Shown here in pieces: positions 23,746 through 52,400 of a stretch of DNA of 64,000 bases. Positions within the stretch are counted from its first letter, which is position 1. Each line of letters begins with the position of its first letter. This stretch comes from Chiloscyllium plagiosum (lineage: Eukaryota): the NCBI RefSeq assembly GCF_004010195.1, contig NC_057718.1, positions 61,835,318 through 61,899,317 on the forward strand. Direction: 5' to 3'. The position numbers and the translations under genes are program-made. The notes beneath the pieces were generated by a model that had not been told where the DNA came from, searched no databases, and saw only the letters and a program-made list of their open reading frames with translations.

Positions 23746-24708
23746 ACATTTAAGAATCAACTACATTATAATGGAGGCACCTAAGAGATTTCCTTTTCTA
23801 ATGGGACAATCAAAATGGTCACCGTTACTGAGGTTAGATCTTAATTCCATATCTATTACACTTTTTAAACTTCCACCAGCTCCAATGGTGGGACATGAAC
23901 CGCTGTCCTTGGGTTCCTGGATTACTGGTCCAGTTAAATTACTATTGCGCCTATTGCAGTCTAAATTAAACCAATTCAGAAAGGTTCTGCACAAAACATT
24001 AGACATCCAGAAATAATTACTACACTAACTGCTTTCCAGCTGCAGACTTTACTCAACGATACATTCGTGGAATTGTGGAAAGATTCTTTCATCATAAGAA
24101 AATAAAAGCTGTAGGCCTTACACATCTGTACCAATGGATAGAAGCAGAGTGGAGCAGTGGAAGGAAAGGAGCCTTTCAAAGCTTAATTATTTTTTATTTC
24201 ACAGACAAAATAAGTGAATTAATTACTTTGGCAAACAAGATTGAGGTGGGAGAGAAGGAGAAAGTGGGGGTTTCAGATGCTGTAGATCAGAGTCGAAGAG
24301 TGTGATGCTGGAAAAGGACAGCCGCTCAGGCAGGATCCAAGGAGCAGGATAATTGATCTTTCAGGCATAAGCCCTTCATCAGGAATGAGATTTGTGGGGC
24401 TGGGTGGGGGGGTGACACCTCCTCCAGGCGTCAGGTGTTAGGTTTGGCGATGGAGGAGGCCATGGAGGAGTGGGTGGGGAATGGAAGTGTTCAGCCACAG
24501 GATGGGTGCAGTCAGGATGGGTATCCCAGAGATGTTCTCTGAAATGATCCACAAATTGGTGTCCTGTCTCCCTATTGTACAGAAGGCTACATCAGGTGCA
24601 ACTGATGAGTAGATGATGCATGTGGAAGTACAGGTACATCTCTGTCGGATGTGGAAGGATCCTTTGGGGCCTTGGGCGGAGGTATGGGTGCAGGTTTTCC
24701 CTGCGGTG

Positions 24709-25070
24709 GAAGGAAGTTTTCCTCCTCTCTCTACAAGAATCTCAGGGAGTCCCTCTCCCACTGCAACTCCCAGGTCATTTCCTCTGCTCTGAAGCTCTTC
24801 AACCATGTCCTGAACCTACCTGCCTATCTTCTTTTCCACCTATCCACTCCACCCTCTTCTCTGGCCTATCACCTTCAACCCCTCCCCCACTCACCTATTG
24901 TACTCTATGCTACTTTCTCCCCACCCCCACCCTGCTCTCATTTATCTCTCCACCCTTCAGGCACTCTGCCTGTATTCCTGATGAAGGGCTTTTACCCGAA
25001 ACATCGATTTTACTGCTCCTCGGATGCTGCCTGAACTACTGTGCTTTTCCAGCACCACTCTATTCCAGAT
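24709..25070 (+). mobile_element. Penelope-like fragment (same family) nested in opposite orientation
   Basis: Flanked by a cctgcggtg direct repeat (24700-24708 and 25071-25079); contains the terminal repeat ctgatgaagggcttttacccgaaacatcga...gcttttccagcaccact. Confidence 0.8.
24974..25008 (+). ncRNA. Minimal type I hammerhead ribozyme motif, degenerate
   Basis: CUGAUGA-A-GGG(CUUUUA)CCC-GAAA-CAUC at 24978-25005; stem III reads ACAU rather than the palindromic ACGU; stem I weak. Confidence 0.6.
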
Positions 25071-38380: not shown

Positions 38381-41077
38381 CTAATTGGAGGAAAATGTGG
38401 TTGAGGCACAGCAGCACGGACAGACTGAATCAAGCAGGAGGAAAAGCACAATAATATAATAAAATGACATTATAAATCATGGAGTCACGCATGTGAGATA
38501 CTGGCAAGTATTGATTTTTAATTTAAATGAATTGACTATTAGTTAGGAATAGATAAAAGAAATAGTAGAAATGTTAAAGCTAAATTGTCCATTTACATTA
38601 TTGTGTTCAATTAATTAATCAAGTCCAGGAGAAAAAGAACTTAAATTAAATAACAAGAAACACAAACACTAAAAATGTTCTAAACTTTTTCAGTCATTTA
38701 AAATTTGAGATATTTGTAGATAATAGAAAGGAGGTGAAATATCAAAATTAATTCCACATAAAATAAGAGAAATCTGAACAAGGGGAGCAACAAATTAACC
38801 AGTGATTCGTTTGTTAACTCTTATGACTATTTCTGTTAAATCAATTATTAATCCAAGAGAGAGAGGCATGGTAGGATATCTCAGTCCCATAGAAGGAATA
38901 CAACCTGTTTACATGGGAGCTCCAGATCACGACACATAACTCCGAAGTCCACATGAGCAGGTATTGTCATCAGGTCCAGCTTTGGGAGCTTCAGCAAGAG
39001 CTGGCATCGCTACTGTGCATCTGCAACGTTGAGAGTATTATGGCTAACACATGGTCACTCTGCAGCTCCGAGGAGTGCAGGCAGCAAGGAAATGGGTGAC
39101 CATCTGATAAAACAGGAGGGGTTGGTATGAAGTACAGAATTTCTGGAATGCATCTCACTCTCCAGCCTACTCTGAACACTAGGGAATAATAGTTCCTCTG
39201 AGTAGTGCCCGAAATAAGTCCGTAGCACCACAATTGTCTAAGGGGTGCAGAAGGAAGATTGGGAAATAAGTAGCTGAAGGGAATCCTACTGTTGGGGCAG
39301 TCAACTGGTATTTCTGCTCCCATAGGTATGAACCCAGAGAAATATGTTACCTCTCTGGTGACAGGTCAAGTATATCACTGAATGGCTGCAGTGGTGATGG
39401 TGGGTGGGAGGTGGCAGGTTGTGGGGGTGGGACATTTGGCGAAAGATTGGGTTAGAGTTAGGGGGTGGGGGTGGGGGAGAGGAATGAACAGCTAACGGTC
39501 ATGGTCAAAATAGTATAGCAACACAGATAGACAAAGGGAAAAGATCAATCCAAACAGATTTTAGGGAGCTGCAGTTGTAATCAGGGCCTCAAAAGGTAGC
39601 AATTCAATACCGATGCCATCTGCTAGTGAGTATAGAAACAGAAGGGCAGAGAAGGTGAAAATGTGGCTGCAGAATTCGTGCAGGAGGAAGGGCTTCATAT
39701 TCTTGAGATATTGGTACTCATTCAAAGAGATGGAACCTGAACAGCAGAAGGAATAATGTCCTGGTAGGGGATTTGCTTGTGCTGTTGGAATATGTTTAAC
39801 CTAAGTTGGCTGGGAATGGAAATCAAGAAGTAACATTAGTGATGGCAAACAAGGTGCACAAAGAATCTGGAACGATGGATAGCACTACAGAAATAGTGAG
39901 GTCATTGTAAGAGGAAATACAAATAGATCTAAATTACATTGACCGGGCATGTTTGTGAACTCACAAAGTGGGTAAATAACATGGGTGACCTAGAGATGCA
40001 GTTAGCCATGTGGGAGGATGGTGTTCTGATGATGAAGAGTTGGCACAGAAAGAACAAGACTGGGTGTACAGTCCTAGATACTAGATATTTCTGTAAGATA
40101 CAGAAGAAAATAAAGGAAATAAGGTGGCAGTGCTAACTTAGGATAATATTACAGTGCTGCACGCAGAGAATGTTGTCAAATAAAGAAACATGCTGGGTGT
40201 TATCTATATTTTTCCAACTAGTAGAAAAGATATTGAGGAACAAATTAGTAAAATGAAATTATGAAGAGATGCACAAATCTACTTAGTAATTATTTTGGGG
40301 AACTTTAATTATCTTAATATAGTTTGAATTAGTAGCAGCGTAGAAAAAGGCAGAAAGAGGTGAAAAGTTTGTTCAGAGAAGTTACTACATCAAGAGGTTT
40401 CTAGTCCAAAAAGGAGGGAGTTGGATCTTAATCCACAATCTCAGTTCATAGAACAAGTGTCAGGGGGATCATTAGGGAACAGTATCATAAAGATTGGGTT
40501 AACTATGAAAAAGGATCATGTTAGCTATTGAGTGAGAATGGATCTGGCTTAGGTAAGTTGTAATCAAAGACTAGCAAAACTGTAAAAAAGGTCAATGGTC
40601 TGTTTGTAAAAGAAGAGATGGTTTGGGTGTTGTCAAGCTTCATTCCTACAAGGGTGATAGGTTGGACAAACAAAGTCAGTGCTCCAAACATTACAGAAGA
40701 AATAAAAAATAAGATAAAACAGATGAAGGGTGAATAGAACAGACATCAGGTTAATCGTACAAGTATGAAACAATCTAAATATAGAAATTTCTGAAGGGAA
40801 ATGAAAAAAGGAGAGAGAATATGAGCAGAGAGACTGATAGCTAACAGAAAAGAGAATCCAAAAATGTCTTCTATAGATAAATTAAAAGTAACAGGATAGA
40901 AAGAGGAGGAGCCAGGTCAATTAAAGACCAGATAGGGATTTTTGCACAGAGGCAAGGGCCATGGTTGAGATACTAAGTGAGATTATCTTGACCAAGGAAG
41001 AAAATGCTGCCAGTGCATAGTGGACAAGGAGCTAGTTGATAAATTTACAAAGCATTGCTTAGTCTATGTAACTAAGA

Positions 41078-41263
41078 GAAAGTGAGGACTGCAGATGCTG
41101 GAGATCAGAGCTGAAAAATGTGTTGCTAGAAAAGCGCAGCAGGTCAGGCAGCATCCAAGGAGCAGGAGAATCGACGTTTCAGGCTTATGCCCCGAAACGT
41201 CGATTCTCCTGCTCCTCGGATGCTGCCTGACTTGCTGCGCTTTTCCAGCAACACATTTTCCGG
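41078..41263. mobile_element. Palindromic Penelope-type mini-element (inverted terminal repeats plus 32-nt tail)
   Basis: 75-bp arms 41110-41184 and 41189-41263 (about 6 mismatches) around a ttat loop; 14-bp TSD ctatgtaactaaga at 41064-41077 and 41264-41277. Confidence 0.9.
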
Positions 41264-41319
41264 CTATGTAACTAAGAATCCATTTGCCATGTTAAAGCTA
41301 AAAATTGATAAAGAGGACC

Positions 41320-41877: not shown

Positions 41878-42752
41878 AAAGAGAAGGTTGGTTAGAGTAA
41901 TGCAGTTGATATGGTGTACATGGACTTTCAAAAGATGTCAAATGTACCACATAACAAGCTTATCCACAAAGTTGAAGCCCACAGAGTAAAAGAGACACTG
42001 GCAGCATGCATACAAAGTTGGCTGAGTGACAAGAAAATATGGTGAATGGTTTTCATGGACTGGAAGAAGGCAAATAGTGATTCTACAGGGTCAGTGTTAG
42101 AACTACCATTTCTTTTGAACTATATGAATGACCTAGACTTGGGTACACAGGACACAATTTAAAATATTAACATGACACAAAACTTGGAAGTATTATTGCC
42201 CGTAAAGACTGGAGATAAATTTCAAGAGGGCATGCATAGGTGAGTGGGATGTTGGAAGGTGACAGGTTGAAGTTAATGCTGAAAAATTTGAATCAATATA
42301 CTTCAAAATGATGTGTAGGAGCAGAAAGGTCTGGGAGAATATTCTGGGTGCATTATTCATTGAAAATGGTAGGGCAAATTAGGAAACTGGTTGATCAGGC
42401 ACACAGAATAAATAACCCAGATGCTGCAGAACCATAATAACGGCTATAATTAATATAAAAAATAAAATAGAATTTCATAACTACTACCTAGGATAATTTG
42501 GATCAAGGATGTTCCATAAATTGCACATGGATGTTTCAAAAGCATCAGCCACATCTTGACTTAAACACCAAGCATAGAGATTAAAGACTTTAACCAACTT
42601 GAAAATGGACCAACTTTACAGCAGCACGAAATCTAATCTATATTTGTTTAATTTATATTCACATGGACTTCAAAAGTAGTGCAGCAAAAAGGTGATTTTC
42701 TCTTACCCACAGCAAATAGATAGCACTAAAAGGAATAAGACAACAGTACAAA

Positions 42753-42846
42753 GAATACCTGATGAGGGCTTATGCCTGAAACATCGACTCTCTTGCTCCT
42801 CGAATGCTGCCTGACCGGCTATGCTTTTCCAGCACCACACTCTTCG
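42753..42846 (+). mobile_element. Solo Penelope-type terminal repeat with a degenerate hammerhead motif
   Basis: ctgatgagggcttatgcctgaaacatc at 42759-42785; aacagtacaaa direct repeat (TSD) at 42742-42752 and 42847-42857. Confidence 0.82.
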
Positions 42847-42857
42847 AACAGTACAAA

Positions 42858-43070
42858 AGGTAGTAAGTGTATGGAACAAGCTGCCACAGGAATTGGTGGA
42901 AGCAGGTACGATTACAACATTTAAAAGGCATCTGGATGGATACATGAAAAGGAAATGTTTGGAGGGATATGGATCAAATGCTGGCAAATGGGACTAGATC
43001 AGTTTAGGATGTCTGGTCAGTGCGGATGAGTTGGACCAAAGGGTCTGTTTCTATTCTGTATAACTCTATG
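42858..43070 (+). mobile_element. HER1-type CR1 LINE short 3' end
   Basis: tggaacaagctgccacaggaattggtggaagcagg...gatgagttggaccaaagggtctgttt...ctctatgtctc. Confidence 0.85.
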
Positions 43071-48377: not shown

Positions 48378-49191
48378 ACGTCAGGTTCACCGGTCTATAA
48401 TTACCTGGATAATCCCTGCTACTCTTCTTAAACAAGGGGACAACATTAGCAATTCTCCAGTCCTCTGGCACCTCACCCATGTTCAAGGATGCTGCAAAAA
48501 TCTCTGTTAAGGCCTCAGCTATTTCCCCTCTCACTTCCCTCAGCCAAGCTGAGATAGATCTCATCCTGACCTGGGGACTTGTCCACTTTAATGCCTTTTC
48601 GAATACACAACACTTCCTCCCTCCTTATTCCGACCTGACCTCGAGTAATCAAACATCTATCCCTAACCTCAACATCCGTCATGTCCCTCTCCTCAGTGAA
48701 TACCAATGCAAAGTACTTGTTAAGAATCTCACCCATATTTTCTGACTACATATAACTTTCCTCCTTTGTCCTTGAGTGGGCCTTTCTCTCATTACCCTCT
48801 TGCTCCTTATACATGAATAAAAGGCTTTAGATTTTCCTTCACCCTTTGCTAAACATATTTCATGACCCCTTTTAGCCCTCTTAATTCCTCATTTCAGATT
48901 GGTCCTACTTTCCTGATACACCTTCAAAGCTTCATCTGTTTACAGTCGTCTAGACCTTCTGTATACTTCCTTTTTCCTCTTAGCTAGTCTCACAATGTCA
49001 CCTGCCATCCATGGTTCCTTAATCTTGCCATTTCTATCCCTCTTTTTCACAGGGTCATGTCTGTCCTGCACGTTAATCAACCTCTCTTTAAAAGCCTCCC
49101 ACATAATATGAATTTACCTTTAAACAGCTGCTTCCAATCCACATTTCCCAGCTCCTGCCAAATTTTCATATAGTTGACCTTCCCCAGTTTA

Positions 49192-49412
49192 TGATTTGGA
49201 GATGCCGGTGTTGGACTGGGGTGTACAAAGTTAAAAATCACACAACACCAGGTTATAGTCCAACAGGTTTAATTGGAAGCACACTAGCTTTCGGAGCGAC
49301 GCTCCTTCACCTGATCACAATCACCTGATGAAGGAGCGTCGCTCCGAAAGCTAGTGTGCTTCCAATTAAACCTGTTGGACTATAACCTGGTGTTGTGTGA
49401 TTTTTAACTTTG
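49192..49412. mobile_element. Young palindromic Penelope-type mini-element (third family): 34-nt tail plus a perfect 84-bp inverted repeat
   Basis: Arms 49226-49309 and 49329-49412 are exact reverse complements; 19-nt spacer; 14-bp TSD ccttccccagttta at 49178-49191 and 49413-49426; CpGs intact. Confidence 0.93.
49322..49356 (+). ncRNA. Minimal type I hammerhead ribozyme, core apparently intact
   Basis: cac-CUGAUGA-A-GGAGC(GUC)GCUCC-GAA-AGCU-A-gug: 3-bp stem I, 5-bp stem II, palindromic AGCU stem III, predicted cleavage after CUA (A49353). Confidence 0.8.
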
Positions 49413-52400
49413 CCTTCCCCAGTTTAGCACTCTTCCTTTTGGACCACTGTCATCTTTGTCCATGAGTATTCTAAAACTTATGGAATTGTTATCACTATTC
49501 CCAAAGTAATCCCCTGCTGTAACTTCAGCCACCTGGCTCATTCCCCAACGCCAGGTCCAGTATAGCCCCTTTCCTATTTGAATTATTTATATACTGATCT
49601 AGAAACCCCTCCTGGATGCCCCCTACAAATTCTGCTCCATCTTGAACTCTAACACTAAGTGAATCTCAGTCAATGTTGGGAAAATTAAAATCTCCTACCA
49701 CCACCACCCTGTTGCTCCTACACCTTTCCCCAATCTGTTTACATATTTGTACCTTTATCTCACACTGGCTGTTGGGAGGCCTGTAGTACTGCCCCAACAT
49801 TGTTACCACACCCTTTCTATTTCTGAGCTCGGCCCATATTGCCTCACTGCTCGAGTCCTCCATAAGGCCCTCCTTCAGCACAGCTGTGCTATCCTCTCTG
49901 ACCAGTGATAGAACTCATCCACCCCTTTTACCTCCCTCTCTATCCCACCTGAAGCATCGATATCTTGGGATATTTAGTTGCCAACCTTGCCCTTCCCTCA
50001 ACCAAGTCTCAGTACTTGCAATAACATCATACTCCCATCAGACTAATCCAAGCCCTAAGTTCACCTGCCTTACCTCCTACACTTCTTGCATTAAAACAAA
50101 TGCACCTCAGACCTGTCCCTCTGCGTTCATTATCTGCTCCCGCCTACTCTTCCCCATGGTTACACTGGCTTCATGACCTAGTTCCTTACAGGCTTTAGTT
50201 ACTACCTCCTTACTGTCCACTAACCTCTTCAATTGGTTCCCATCCCATTGCCGCACTAGTTTAAACTCTTCCCAACAGTGATAGCAAAAGCATCCCCAAG
50301 GACAGGTTATTGAAGTAACTGTAGTGAAGATTTTAGTGCAGCTTTTCATTCAGTATAATCCCCAAAGTCATCCCAACATACCTGACATTGAAGTGACAAA
50401 ACATATCCATTTGCAGGAGATCTGTTAACTTGCCCCCAAGTATGAAGATCACTCTGGTGTTTAATGAGTCAAAACATATTTATTTTTCAATGATTTTTAG
50501 GAAGAGAAAATAATCATATACAATAATGGAATCAAAAGCATATGGGAACAAAGAAAATCATTTCAGTAAACATTACTGTGCACCCAGTATATTCCTTTCA
50601 CAAGTCCAACAGAAAGCGACAAGCAATTAGTTTTAATGAGAGAGGTGTGGAAGACAGTAGCATGAATTGAATATTCCCATTTGTCGCATACAGCACACGT
50701 TAGCAATTCTACCAACAACACGAGAGGCCAGCCATAGCCAAAGCTTTGTTGGATCTTGCAGATTCTGTTGAGGCAGCCTAAAAGCAGCTGTCTGACCAAC
50801 AATCACTCAACAACTACAGCAACAGGGTGAGCTGAGCTCAGCTCAGGCTGGACAAATATTTCAATCAAATTAATTCATGCAGTACTTCCTACCCTTCTAA
50901 TACTGCAGGCTCCACCTTTCACTTTAATCTTTCAATCAGCACTGCATACAGGTGATTTTTATTCTGCACTGCAGTGATGAGCATTCATAATGCAAACACA
51001 CATGATAGAGGTAGTAGGTATAGATGGCCTTAGCACAACCAAAGAGACAGGATGTTTTCAGAAATAAAACTTTCTTTCCTAGGACATTCCACTCTCACAT
51101 ATGAGCTTTATTTTGTATGCTTTTCTAATCTTCACAGGTTACCTTCCATTTCTTTGTTTAAACAGAACTTGCATTACAAATTTAGTTGCTGCATTTCAAT
51201 ACAAACTTTGACTGCATATTAGAGGCTGAAATATAGATTAATTTATTCAGGAAGCAATTTTAGACCTATATATAGACTATTCAGCTGCACTACTTTAAGC
51301 CTTCAGAAATCAAGACTACACATTTTCGGCAGGTCTCTTAAATAACAGGGCAAATAGTAACAAAAATTAAAGTACCTGAAATAATCTCTTTCACTATCTT
51401 ATTTACCAGAGGGTGTAATCATTCAAAAATAAATGCTAAATTTCCACTACAGTTGGAGAAGGAAGAATTTTTGTGCAGAGCATTAAGCACAGCATTAATC
51501 TCATTTTATTCATCATGAAGGTGCAATTTGATATGTATGGAATGGTTCTACAAAACTCTGAAGAGGAATTCAGTATTTTTTGATAACCTACAATCATTCT
51601 TGGAGAAAAGCCTCCACATCATGTTTAGCAGGTATTTAAACACTTTTTTCAAAAATGTTACATCCATTAACTATTCCATGCATGAAAATAAAGAGAATTG
51701 AGTATGAAAGACAGACACATGGGGGCATTATGAATTAATGCAAGTCAGAGTTACGAGAATAATATTCCATTTTATGAAAAGACTTGTATTCTCAAAAAAA
51801 AATTCGTGTCCAGGGACTGAACGTTTGTGACTGAGAGTTGTCATGGAATCCAGATACATTCTGACTTAGAATATATGTTCTACCAAAATCTTAATCTGTG
51901 GAAAGCATCATTTAACATAATCATGACTTGTGATTGATCAGATATTTCAGTTGCAAAACAATTTGTGTACGATTGGATGATTCTGACTTTGAATATCTGC
52001 AAGTCAATGTAGGAAACGGAATGGAGAAGATATTGACCAAGTTTGATTTCAACATTAGTAACTTTAACAGAACAAAATAATTATACTAATAACCATGAGT
52101 AGCCAAATACTTATCTTCTATCTTTAAAAGGATTTGGTTCAAATAGTTGGGTGTTGGACAAAAGCCAAAAAAGAATTGAATTGCGGCCTGAATGACTTTT
52201 GGCTTCAGTTCTTGTCTGGGCTGTCGAATCGAGAAGACTGCATTGTCAACTAGGGAAGATGTTGCTGCACGAATGGGGAAGGTGGGTGGGGAGAACAGGA
52301 GAAATAAGAGTAAAGTAGCATGGTTTGTCTGATATCACAGGACCATACTAAACATACAGCATGAGAAAGCAGTTACATCACTGATTGTTGTAATGGGAAA

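Follow-up and report, generated by a model that had tools for sequence, protein, structure and literature searches.

Penelope-like elements (PLEs) typically show a neighbouring inverted copy that is truncated at its 5' end, together with a tail of 30-40 bp, as set out in the available part of Craig et al. 2021 (PMC8557442). The accessible sections of two earlier reports describe inverted pLTRs with a 31-bp tail, 8-10-bp target-site duplications (TSDs) and microhomology junctions (Arkhipova et al. 2013, PMC3846280), and a 34-bp repeat with inverted termini (Schostak et al. 2008, PMC2377424). The former interprets junction palindromes as self-priming and states that pLTRs alone can mobilize cargo in trans. 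The minimal hammerhead ribozymes (min-HHRs) of metazoan PLEs are characterized by an extra nucleotide, a G10.1-C11.1 pair and a palindromic stem III (Cervera and De la Pena 2014, PMC4209133); in the portion of that paper available to us, a Schistosoma motif shows no activity as a monomer and low activity as a dimer, min-HHR pairs lie on opposite strands ~100-700 bp apart, and most motifs are solo, from truncated PLEs.

Two further systems bear on the locus described here. The Poseidon PAc protein of Anolis carolinensis cleaves and extends both target strands, and two RT start sites bracket the tail inside a stem-loop that is AC-rich (Frangieh et al. 2024, PMC11167929); according to the excerpts available, its ribozyme is protein-assisted and dispensable for insertion in vitro, and no RNA-seq ends occur at the cut. 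Retrozymes, by contrast in layout, repeat in tandem from head to tail, contain two or more complete ribozymes and yield circular RNAs (PMC7229834; Li et al. 2026, preprint 10.64898/2026.07.22.740005, each as far as its text was accessible), and the preprint derives animal retrozymes from pLTRs.

The unit analysed here is a 221-bp insertion at 49192-49412 of the window, the whole 64-kb stretch of DNA under study (Table 1). A sequence-only reading had described a 14-bp TSD, a 34-nt tail, perfect 84-bp arms, a 9-nt repeat and a hammerhead, and every one of these features was reproduced to the base. The insert resembles EN+ PLE insertions in its head-to-head inverted 5'-truncated copy, one-ended tail, short TSD and junction microhomology; it differs in that both halves measure only ~100-120 nt, so that no ORF lies between them, and in a TSD of 13-14 bp against the published 8-10. 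Its tail of 34-35 nt falls within the optional 30-40 bp given for PLEs and compares with the 34 bp recorded for D. virilis Penelope and 31 bp for Adineta Pen2a in the parts of the sources at hand.

Table 1. Features of the insertion and its surroundings (window coordinates)
Feature	Position	Strand	Remarks
Host CR1-type LINE ORF2, decayed, interrupted by the insert	48700-49894	-	extent is the span of BLAST hits
TSD, left copy	49178-49191		CR1 sequence; final base doubles as the tail-end base of the family; pile of loose ends at 49191
Tail, unpaired, 34 nt	49192-49225	-	confined to the inverted copy; sense strand AC-rich; the commonest 3' end of the family is its outer end
Left arm, 84 bp	49226-49309	-	inverted 5'-truncated pLTR copy, 118 nt including tail, cut inside the hammerhead core
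Mirror poly(A) hexamer	49268-49273	-	mirrored poly(A) position 49253
Junction-specific bases, six	49310-49315	+	copy of 49324-49329; 3-nt microhomology to left-arm end
Sense 5'-truncated pLTR copy, 97 nt	49316-49412	+	starts 9 nt upstream of the hammerhead core; stops at the second 3' end of the family
Minimal type I hammerhead motif	49322-49356	+	predicted cut after A49353
Right arm, 84 bp	49329-49412	+	part of sense copy 49316-49412
Cleavage/polyadenylation module	49365-49408	+	ATTAAA 49365-49370; poly(A) at 49382/49385 in family RNA; GU-rich 49389-49408
TSD, right copy	49413-49426		

The two TSD copies are identical over 14 bp, with identity extending on neither side. Base 49191 is common to target and element, family contigs and reads aligning on to it, so that the TSD measures 13-14 bp and the tail 34-35 nt once this shared base is counted. 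Alignment to all three CR1 copies in the window favoured one TSD copy over two (142 v 133, 128 v 114 and 97 v 90), and both flanks read as a single decayed LINE ORF2 on the minus strand; the TSD is therefore a true duplication. The host LINE is presumably CR1, a label taken from the look of its protein rather than from a library search. Between the arms lie 19 nt, and the arms themselves show zero mismatches over 84 bp. From this a very recent insertion had been proposed, a claim that we weaken to a bound on age, since zero mismatches still allow up to 3.5% divergence at 95% confidence.

Beyond the right arm, target bases 49417-49423 match the family tail at 49215-49221 over 7 nt in exact register, a match equalled by 54 of the 127,972 14-mers of the window. 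Primer-template annealing could account for it at this single site. As a family rule, target-tail homology was set aside, since the flank consensus of other family copies, drawn from contig and read loose ends, contains no such match.

One complete hammerhead is present in the insert, the minus-strand copy ending inside the core. It is built of stem I (CAC at 49322-49324 with GTG at 49354-49356), CUGAUGA at 49325-49331, the extra A49332, a 5-bp stem II, GAAA and the palindromic AGCU of stem III. Checked against the min-HHR features in the accessible part of PMC4209133, it shows the conserved core, the extra nucleotide that follows position 9 and precedes 10.1, the G10.1-C11.1 pair and the palindromic stem III. 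With core, A49332 and stem III all in place, the motif conforms to the minimal, putatively dimer-type hammerhead that had been proposed. It departs from metazoan PLE min-HHRs in that stem II is 5 bp, stem I 3 bp and the second ribozyme cut, leaving no partner in cis. An Rfam search returned no hammerhead match.

Pattern scans covered viral contigs (scanned twice), prokaryote genomes and metagenomes, with 0 matches in the first two and two loci, L001 and L002, in the metagenomes. Their ribozyme is identical to the insert motif at 34 of 36 bases (49321-49356); outside it both loci diverge from the insert, the downstream sequence being unrelated, and they belong to another family. In L001 an inverted RT fragment (RVT_1, E 4e-5, below Pfam's cut-off) abuts a sense copy. 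L002 has a C-terminal domain lacking a Pfam hit, which we take to be GIY-YIG, and both loci match protein P0002, which carries PF00078. A motif sharing 34/36 nt with that of the insert thus adjoins RT/endonuclease coding sequence, which ties this ribozyme type to RT-bearing elements via L001 and L002 rather than via the family's own partner. The window and the viral, prokaryote and metagenome sequences scanned yielded no autonomous member of this exact family, with telomerase-like RT and C-terminal GIY-YIG endonuclease. Within the 64-kb window, BLAST found no second copy of the family, and the upstream family motif, as a lead to an autonomous member, gave 0 matches. Together, the tail, the TSD, the inverted truncated copy and the minimal hammerhead shared with L001/L002 argue for the Penelope-like origin suggested earlier.

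The marine-metagenome PLE at L002 also repeats its coding linker (1-109) in antisense beyond the ORF's downstream end, at 983-1091 (109 nt, 94.5% identical), and the two could form a long-range RNA duplex.

Four public runs, chosen among 24 runs listed, were aligned to 48980-49639 at 90% likeness. X1, X3 and X6 consist of contigs from organisms A, B and C, respectively, and X21 of raw poly(A)-selected single-cell RNA reads from organism A (~2% of the run); they are best taken as coming from relatives, since none shares more than 0.40 of the stretch's words. Aligned contigs numbered 45,547 (X1), 84,971 (X3) and 82,919 (X6), mostly on the element, and aligned X21 reads 2,037. Summed depth on the arms is ~100-fold above that on the CR1 flanks in the contig runs, a figure that is not a copy number; edge effects of the alignment account for part of a depth trough at 49288-49331. 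The family is very abundant in related organisms. No RNA run with the 1.2-kb stretch occurred among the runs listed, and no empty-site joint among the 15 of 912 joints listed, the flanks being repeats themselves.

Loose ends pile up at 49191/49192 (313 contigs in X1, 989+369 in X3 and 842+322 in X6; 119 reads in X21), with a second pile at 49225-49230 and its mirror at 49408-49413, and the flanks beyond them are AT-rich and of low agreement (0.33-0.38). The family has two preferred 3' ends ~34-38 nt apart, about one tail length, both seen in the three DNA-type runs, and the insert uses one of them on each side. Two 3' ends bracketing an AC-rich tail, AT-rich flanks and the lack of an RNA-end pile at the ribozyme cut are likenesses to PAc as described in the available text. 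The loose-end consensus before 49191 has a few bases common to all four runs, indicating that some copies run slightly past the tail end (near 49188-49192). A sense-strand ATG that falls at 49188-49192 might be the start of the next ORF.

A 9-nt direct repeat, at 49307-49315 and 49321-49329, marks the centre of the hairpin. Loose ends show that family sequence from farther upstream attaches at 49316 (81 contigs in X1, 91 in X6 and 642 reads in X21); the right half from there on is consequently a plain sense copy, and 49310-49315 alone is junction-specific. What had been called a 19-nt spacer is 13 nt of ordinary pLTR plus these six bases, which are likely a templated insertion. The template switching put forward to explain the repeat finds support as a templated-jump junction, with 49324-49329 recurring at 49310-49315.

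Among the head-to-head junctions listed for X1, X3 and X6, all 18 distinct ones differ from each other, so that the inverted, 5'-truncated adjacent copy is accompanied by a variable junction. The 18 comprise the arm-to-arm joints among the 15 of 912 listed (11, with one flank-to-arm and three element end-to-end joints) and further arm-to-arm rows of a second table; flank-to-arm and end-to-end joints and one end-type row were left out. Those 11 rest on 1-2 contigs per run, and the junctions of the second table carry 1-13 extra letters. Two of the 18 restart at 49353-49355 and eight at 49316-49325, the latter partly forced by a reference in which the family begins at 49316. None of the 24 pieces listed (211,980 further exist) crosses 49309-49316; assembled contigs can break at perfect hairpins, which limits the junction survey, and with 15 of 912 joints listed a small subfamily with this same junction is possible.

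Element ends are in some cases joined directly to element ends (49191-49227, 49191-49229 and 49408-49229; 7-10 contigs in X3, 4-5 in X6), which suggests insertion beside existing copies.

These junctions weigh on the idea of the 221-bp hairpin as a non-autonomous mobile unit in its own right, retrozyme- or SINE-like, transcribed and re-inserted whole by PLE proteins. Short end-pieces of the family are extremely abundant, and the hairpin keeps the tail, which the accessible part of PMC11167929 links to RT initiation; the mobilization of cargo by pLTRs and the derivation of animal retrozymes from them, cited above from PMC3846280 and the preprint, point the same way, and the insert shares with non-LTR retrozymes, as far as the sources describe them, a protein-free make-up, a type I hammerhead and an origin in, or mobilization by, PLEs. 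However, no listed junction recurs, none of the listed pieces spans the junction of this insert, and its ribozyme is predicted to be buried in the duplex. Retrozymes, moreover, are tandem with at least two complete hammerheads in the available descriptions, whereas the present locus is a single head-to-head scar with one complete motif and no other family copy in the window. We therefore regard a mobile unit of this kind as improbable. The sequence-only reading had offered as its first option a replicating retrozyme-like family, which the differing junctions and the head-to-head, single-ribozyme layout speak against, and had named as its second option an extreme 5'-truncation product, which is the one that the data support. 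It had also reasoned that a different junction in every copy would leave truncation products alone; the listed junctions come close to this, within the 15 of 912 joints listed.

We accordingly assign a probability of roughly 0.85 to the hairpin being what a single insertion by an abundant Penelope-like retrotransposon left behind, with two 5'-truncated terminal-repeat copies lying head to head between a duplicated target site. In the proposed sequence of events, the GIY-YIG endonuclease of the element would nick both target strands 13-14 nt apart, and each nicked 3' end would prime reverse transcription on family RNA, the top strand starting at the tail end and gaining 118 nt, the bottom strand starting at the arm end and gaining 97 nt. 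Both syntheses would stop at or inside the hammerhead; one cDNA end would then slip and add six templated bases (49324-49329 again), anneal to the other through the 3-nt microhomology and be sealed by repair.

A variant with the same origin would have a single cDNA, or antisense RNA, snap back near the hammerhead and be copied. It would account for the two arms carrying the same letters where the family is polymorphic (e.g. 49338-49339 and 49366/49272), although a single source element would equally give identical arms; a 4-bp mini-hairpin at the centre (49312-49323) offers a place for the fold, and PMC3846280, in its available part, favours self-priming for junction palindromes. Neither half, however, is fully mirrored in the other, since the left alone has the tail and the right alone has 49316-49328, and both outer ends coincide with the two family ends, as expected if both were RT start sites of the kind described in the accessible text of PMC11167929. 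We consider fold-back unlikely, though a serious contender. Two-primer synthesis and fold-back self-priming are both compatible with the data.

The insert hairpin folds at -168.8 kcal/mol (z -26.6), and none of 200 shuffles folds as well. The predicted probability of stem II is 5e-18 in the full hairpin, compared with 0.99 in the sense copy alone, that is, without the left arm, so the duplex is predicted to be a permanent block on the ribozyme rather than a switch; the term self-silencing switch, applied earlier to a read-through transcript, is too strong. Designed active dimers reach -16.3 to -18.9 kcal/mol, against a minimum of -31.7 for an inactive dimer, the latter for a fragment 2 nt longer. 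The product lacks an ORF, its only ribozyme depends on a dimer partner, and the 84-bp duplex would bury that ribozyme; a dead end is therefore predicted. Any residual effects are likely passive: each strand would carry a poly(A) signal, and transcription of the locus would give a dsRNA hairpin.

Long inverted repeats flanked by a TSD could also indicate a MITE, that is, a DNA transposon, or a microRNA hairpin, and Rfam MIR845_1 indeed matches at 49.5 bits. That score lies far below the gathering cut-off of 81 and is equal on both strands; all Rfam matches (MIR845_1, mir-143 and others) fall below their gathering scores and were rejected as generic hairpin matches. In a MITE both termini carry inverted repeats and the interior is common to the copies, whereas the left repeat here lies 34 nt inside the insert, behind the tail, the centres differ between listed copies, and family copies end at two fixed 3' points with the other end variably truncated. 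Either identity is very improbable.

The layout is not peculiar to this family. A second Penelope family with a different ribozyme shows the same TSD, tail and hairpin at 41065-41277, ~8 kb away, with a 13-nt TSD, arms differing at 7 of 78 positions and a centre inside the ribozyme stem II; this hairpin is older than that at 49192-49412. Since the second family repeats the arrangement with a different centre, the TSD-tail-hairpin layout is routine in this window. The same family is further represented by inverted arms at 24295-24386 and 24974-25065 around ~590 bp, and by a solo stub at 42742-42858 (about 42755-42845) that starts just before the ribozyme core and has an 11-12-nt TSD. Judged by eye, 24441-24815 resembled an endonuclease remnant, which Pfam (no match), tblastn (no match) and BLASTP (E 0.011) did not confirm.

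The RNA run adds a feature of the family as a whole. X21 reads bear an A-run after 49382 (315 reads) or 49385 (342), and in 86 a T-run precedes 49253, the position that mirrors 49385 exactly; together such ends make up 743 of the 2,037 aligned reads, a total that includes duplicates and mates and is family-level, not locus-level. The hexamer, ATTAAA here, is AATAAA in other copies (variant 49366 T>A). A hexamer followed by cleavage and then a GU-rich stretch is the usual geometry of a poly(A) site, and the two sites fall 12 and 15 nt past ATTAAA, ahead of the GU-rich stretch. These reads place a 3'-processing site past the ribozyme and its cut, yet ahead of the inferred RT start sites and of both family ends. 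They could alternatively stem from internal priming on A-runs in the genome; no matching A-run occurs among the 18 DNA loose-end rows listed (1,385 further exist). On their upstream side, loose ends of the X21 reads most often consist of the family's own upstream sequence (642 reads, against 159 with another); longer copies are hence the likely source of many poly(A) reads.

At the ribozyme cut, neither RNA starts nor RNA ends pile up in X21, and depth across the site does not drop (1068.8 v 979.8); this library cannot reveal short 3' cleavage products, and the depth means that the spanning reads are uncut and no more. The hexamer recurs in L002 as AATAAA, 19 nt past its cut site. The second window family has no such hexamer in the stretches inspected, so the feature is not universal among Penelope-type families. 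A poly(A) site between ribozyme and tail sets the family of this insert apart from PAc, for which the accessible text reports none; there, the ORF starts at ribozyme stem II, whereas here the core ATG reaches a stop after 8 codons. A comparable order of ribozyme and then poly(A) signal is described for a host 3' UTR in the available part of PMC6765202, and in the open-access full-text literature we found no report of a poly(A) site between PLE ribozyme and tail.

The hairpin had also been proposed as an ADAR substrate. Places with A>G or T>C make up 43 of the 120 listed in the RNA, compared with 17/82, 21/89 and 17/80 in the three contig runs (Fisher p 0.028, 0.069 and 0.029), a comparison that mixes individuals, data types and many loci. 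This is a weak hint of A-to-I editing of family hairpins, and the proposal survives as such a family-level hint and no more.

As a single locus, the insertion carries little weight beyond being a clean example of the published PLE insertion structure. As a mechanistic record it is useful, since its outer ends coincide with the pair of family ends, in keeping with what the two-start-site result obtained in vitro for the anole element would predict, as far as the accessible part of PMC11167929 describes it. For the family, we tentatively suggest, at somewhat less than even odds, that the pLTR holds a working poly(A) signal between the cut site and the RT starts: polyadenylated RNA, having lost the RT start sites, would be translated only, read-through RNA would serve as template, ribozyme cleavage 12 nt upstream of the hexamer would act as an off-switch removing the poly(A), and stubs would be two-way poly(A) cassettes and sources of dsRNA. 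If this is true, the stubs, very numerous across a genome that looks shark-like in its repeat content, could bring host transcripts to an end, whichever way these run. Confirmation would point to a way in which a PLE keeps its mRNA distinct from its template, and each stub would be a mobile poly(A) signal.
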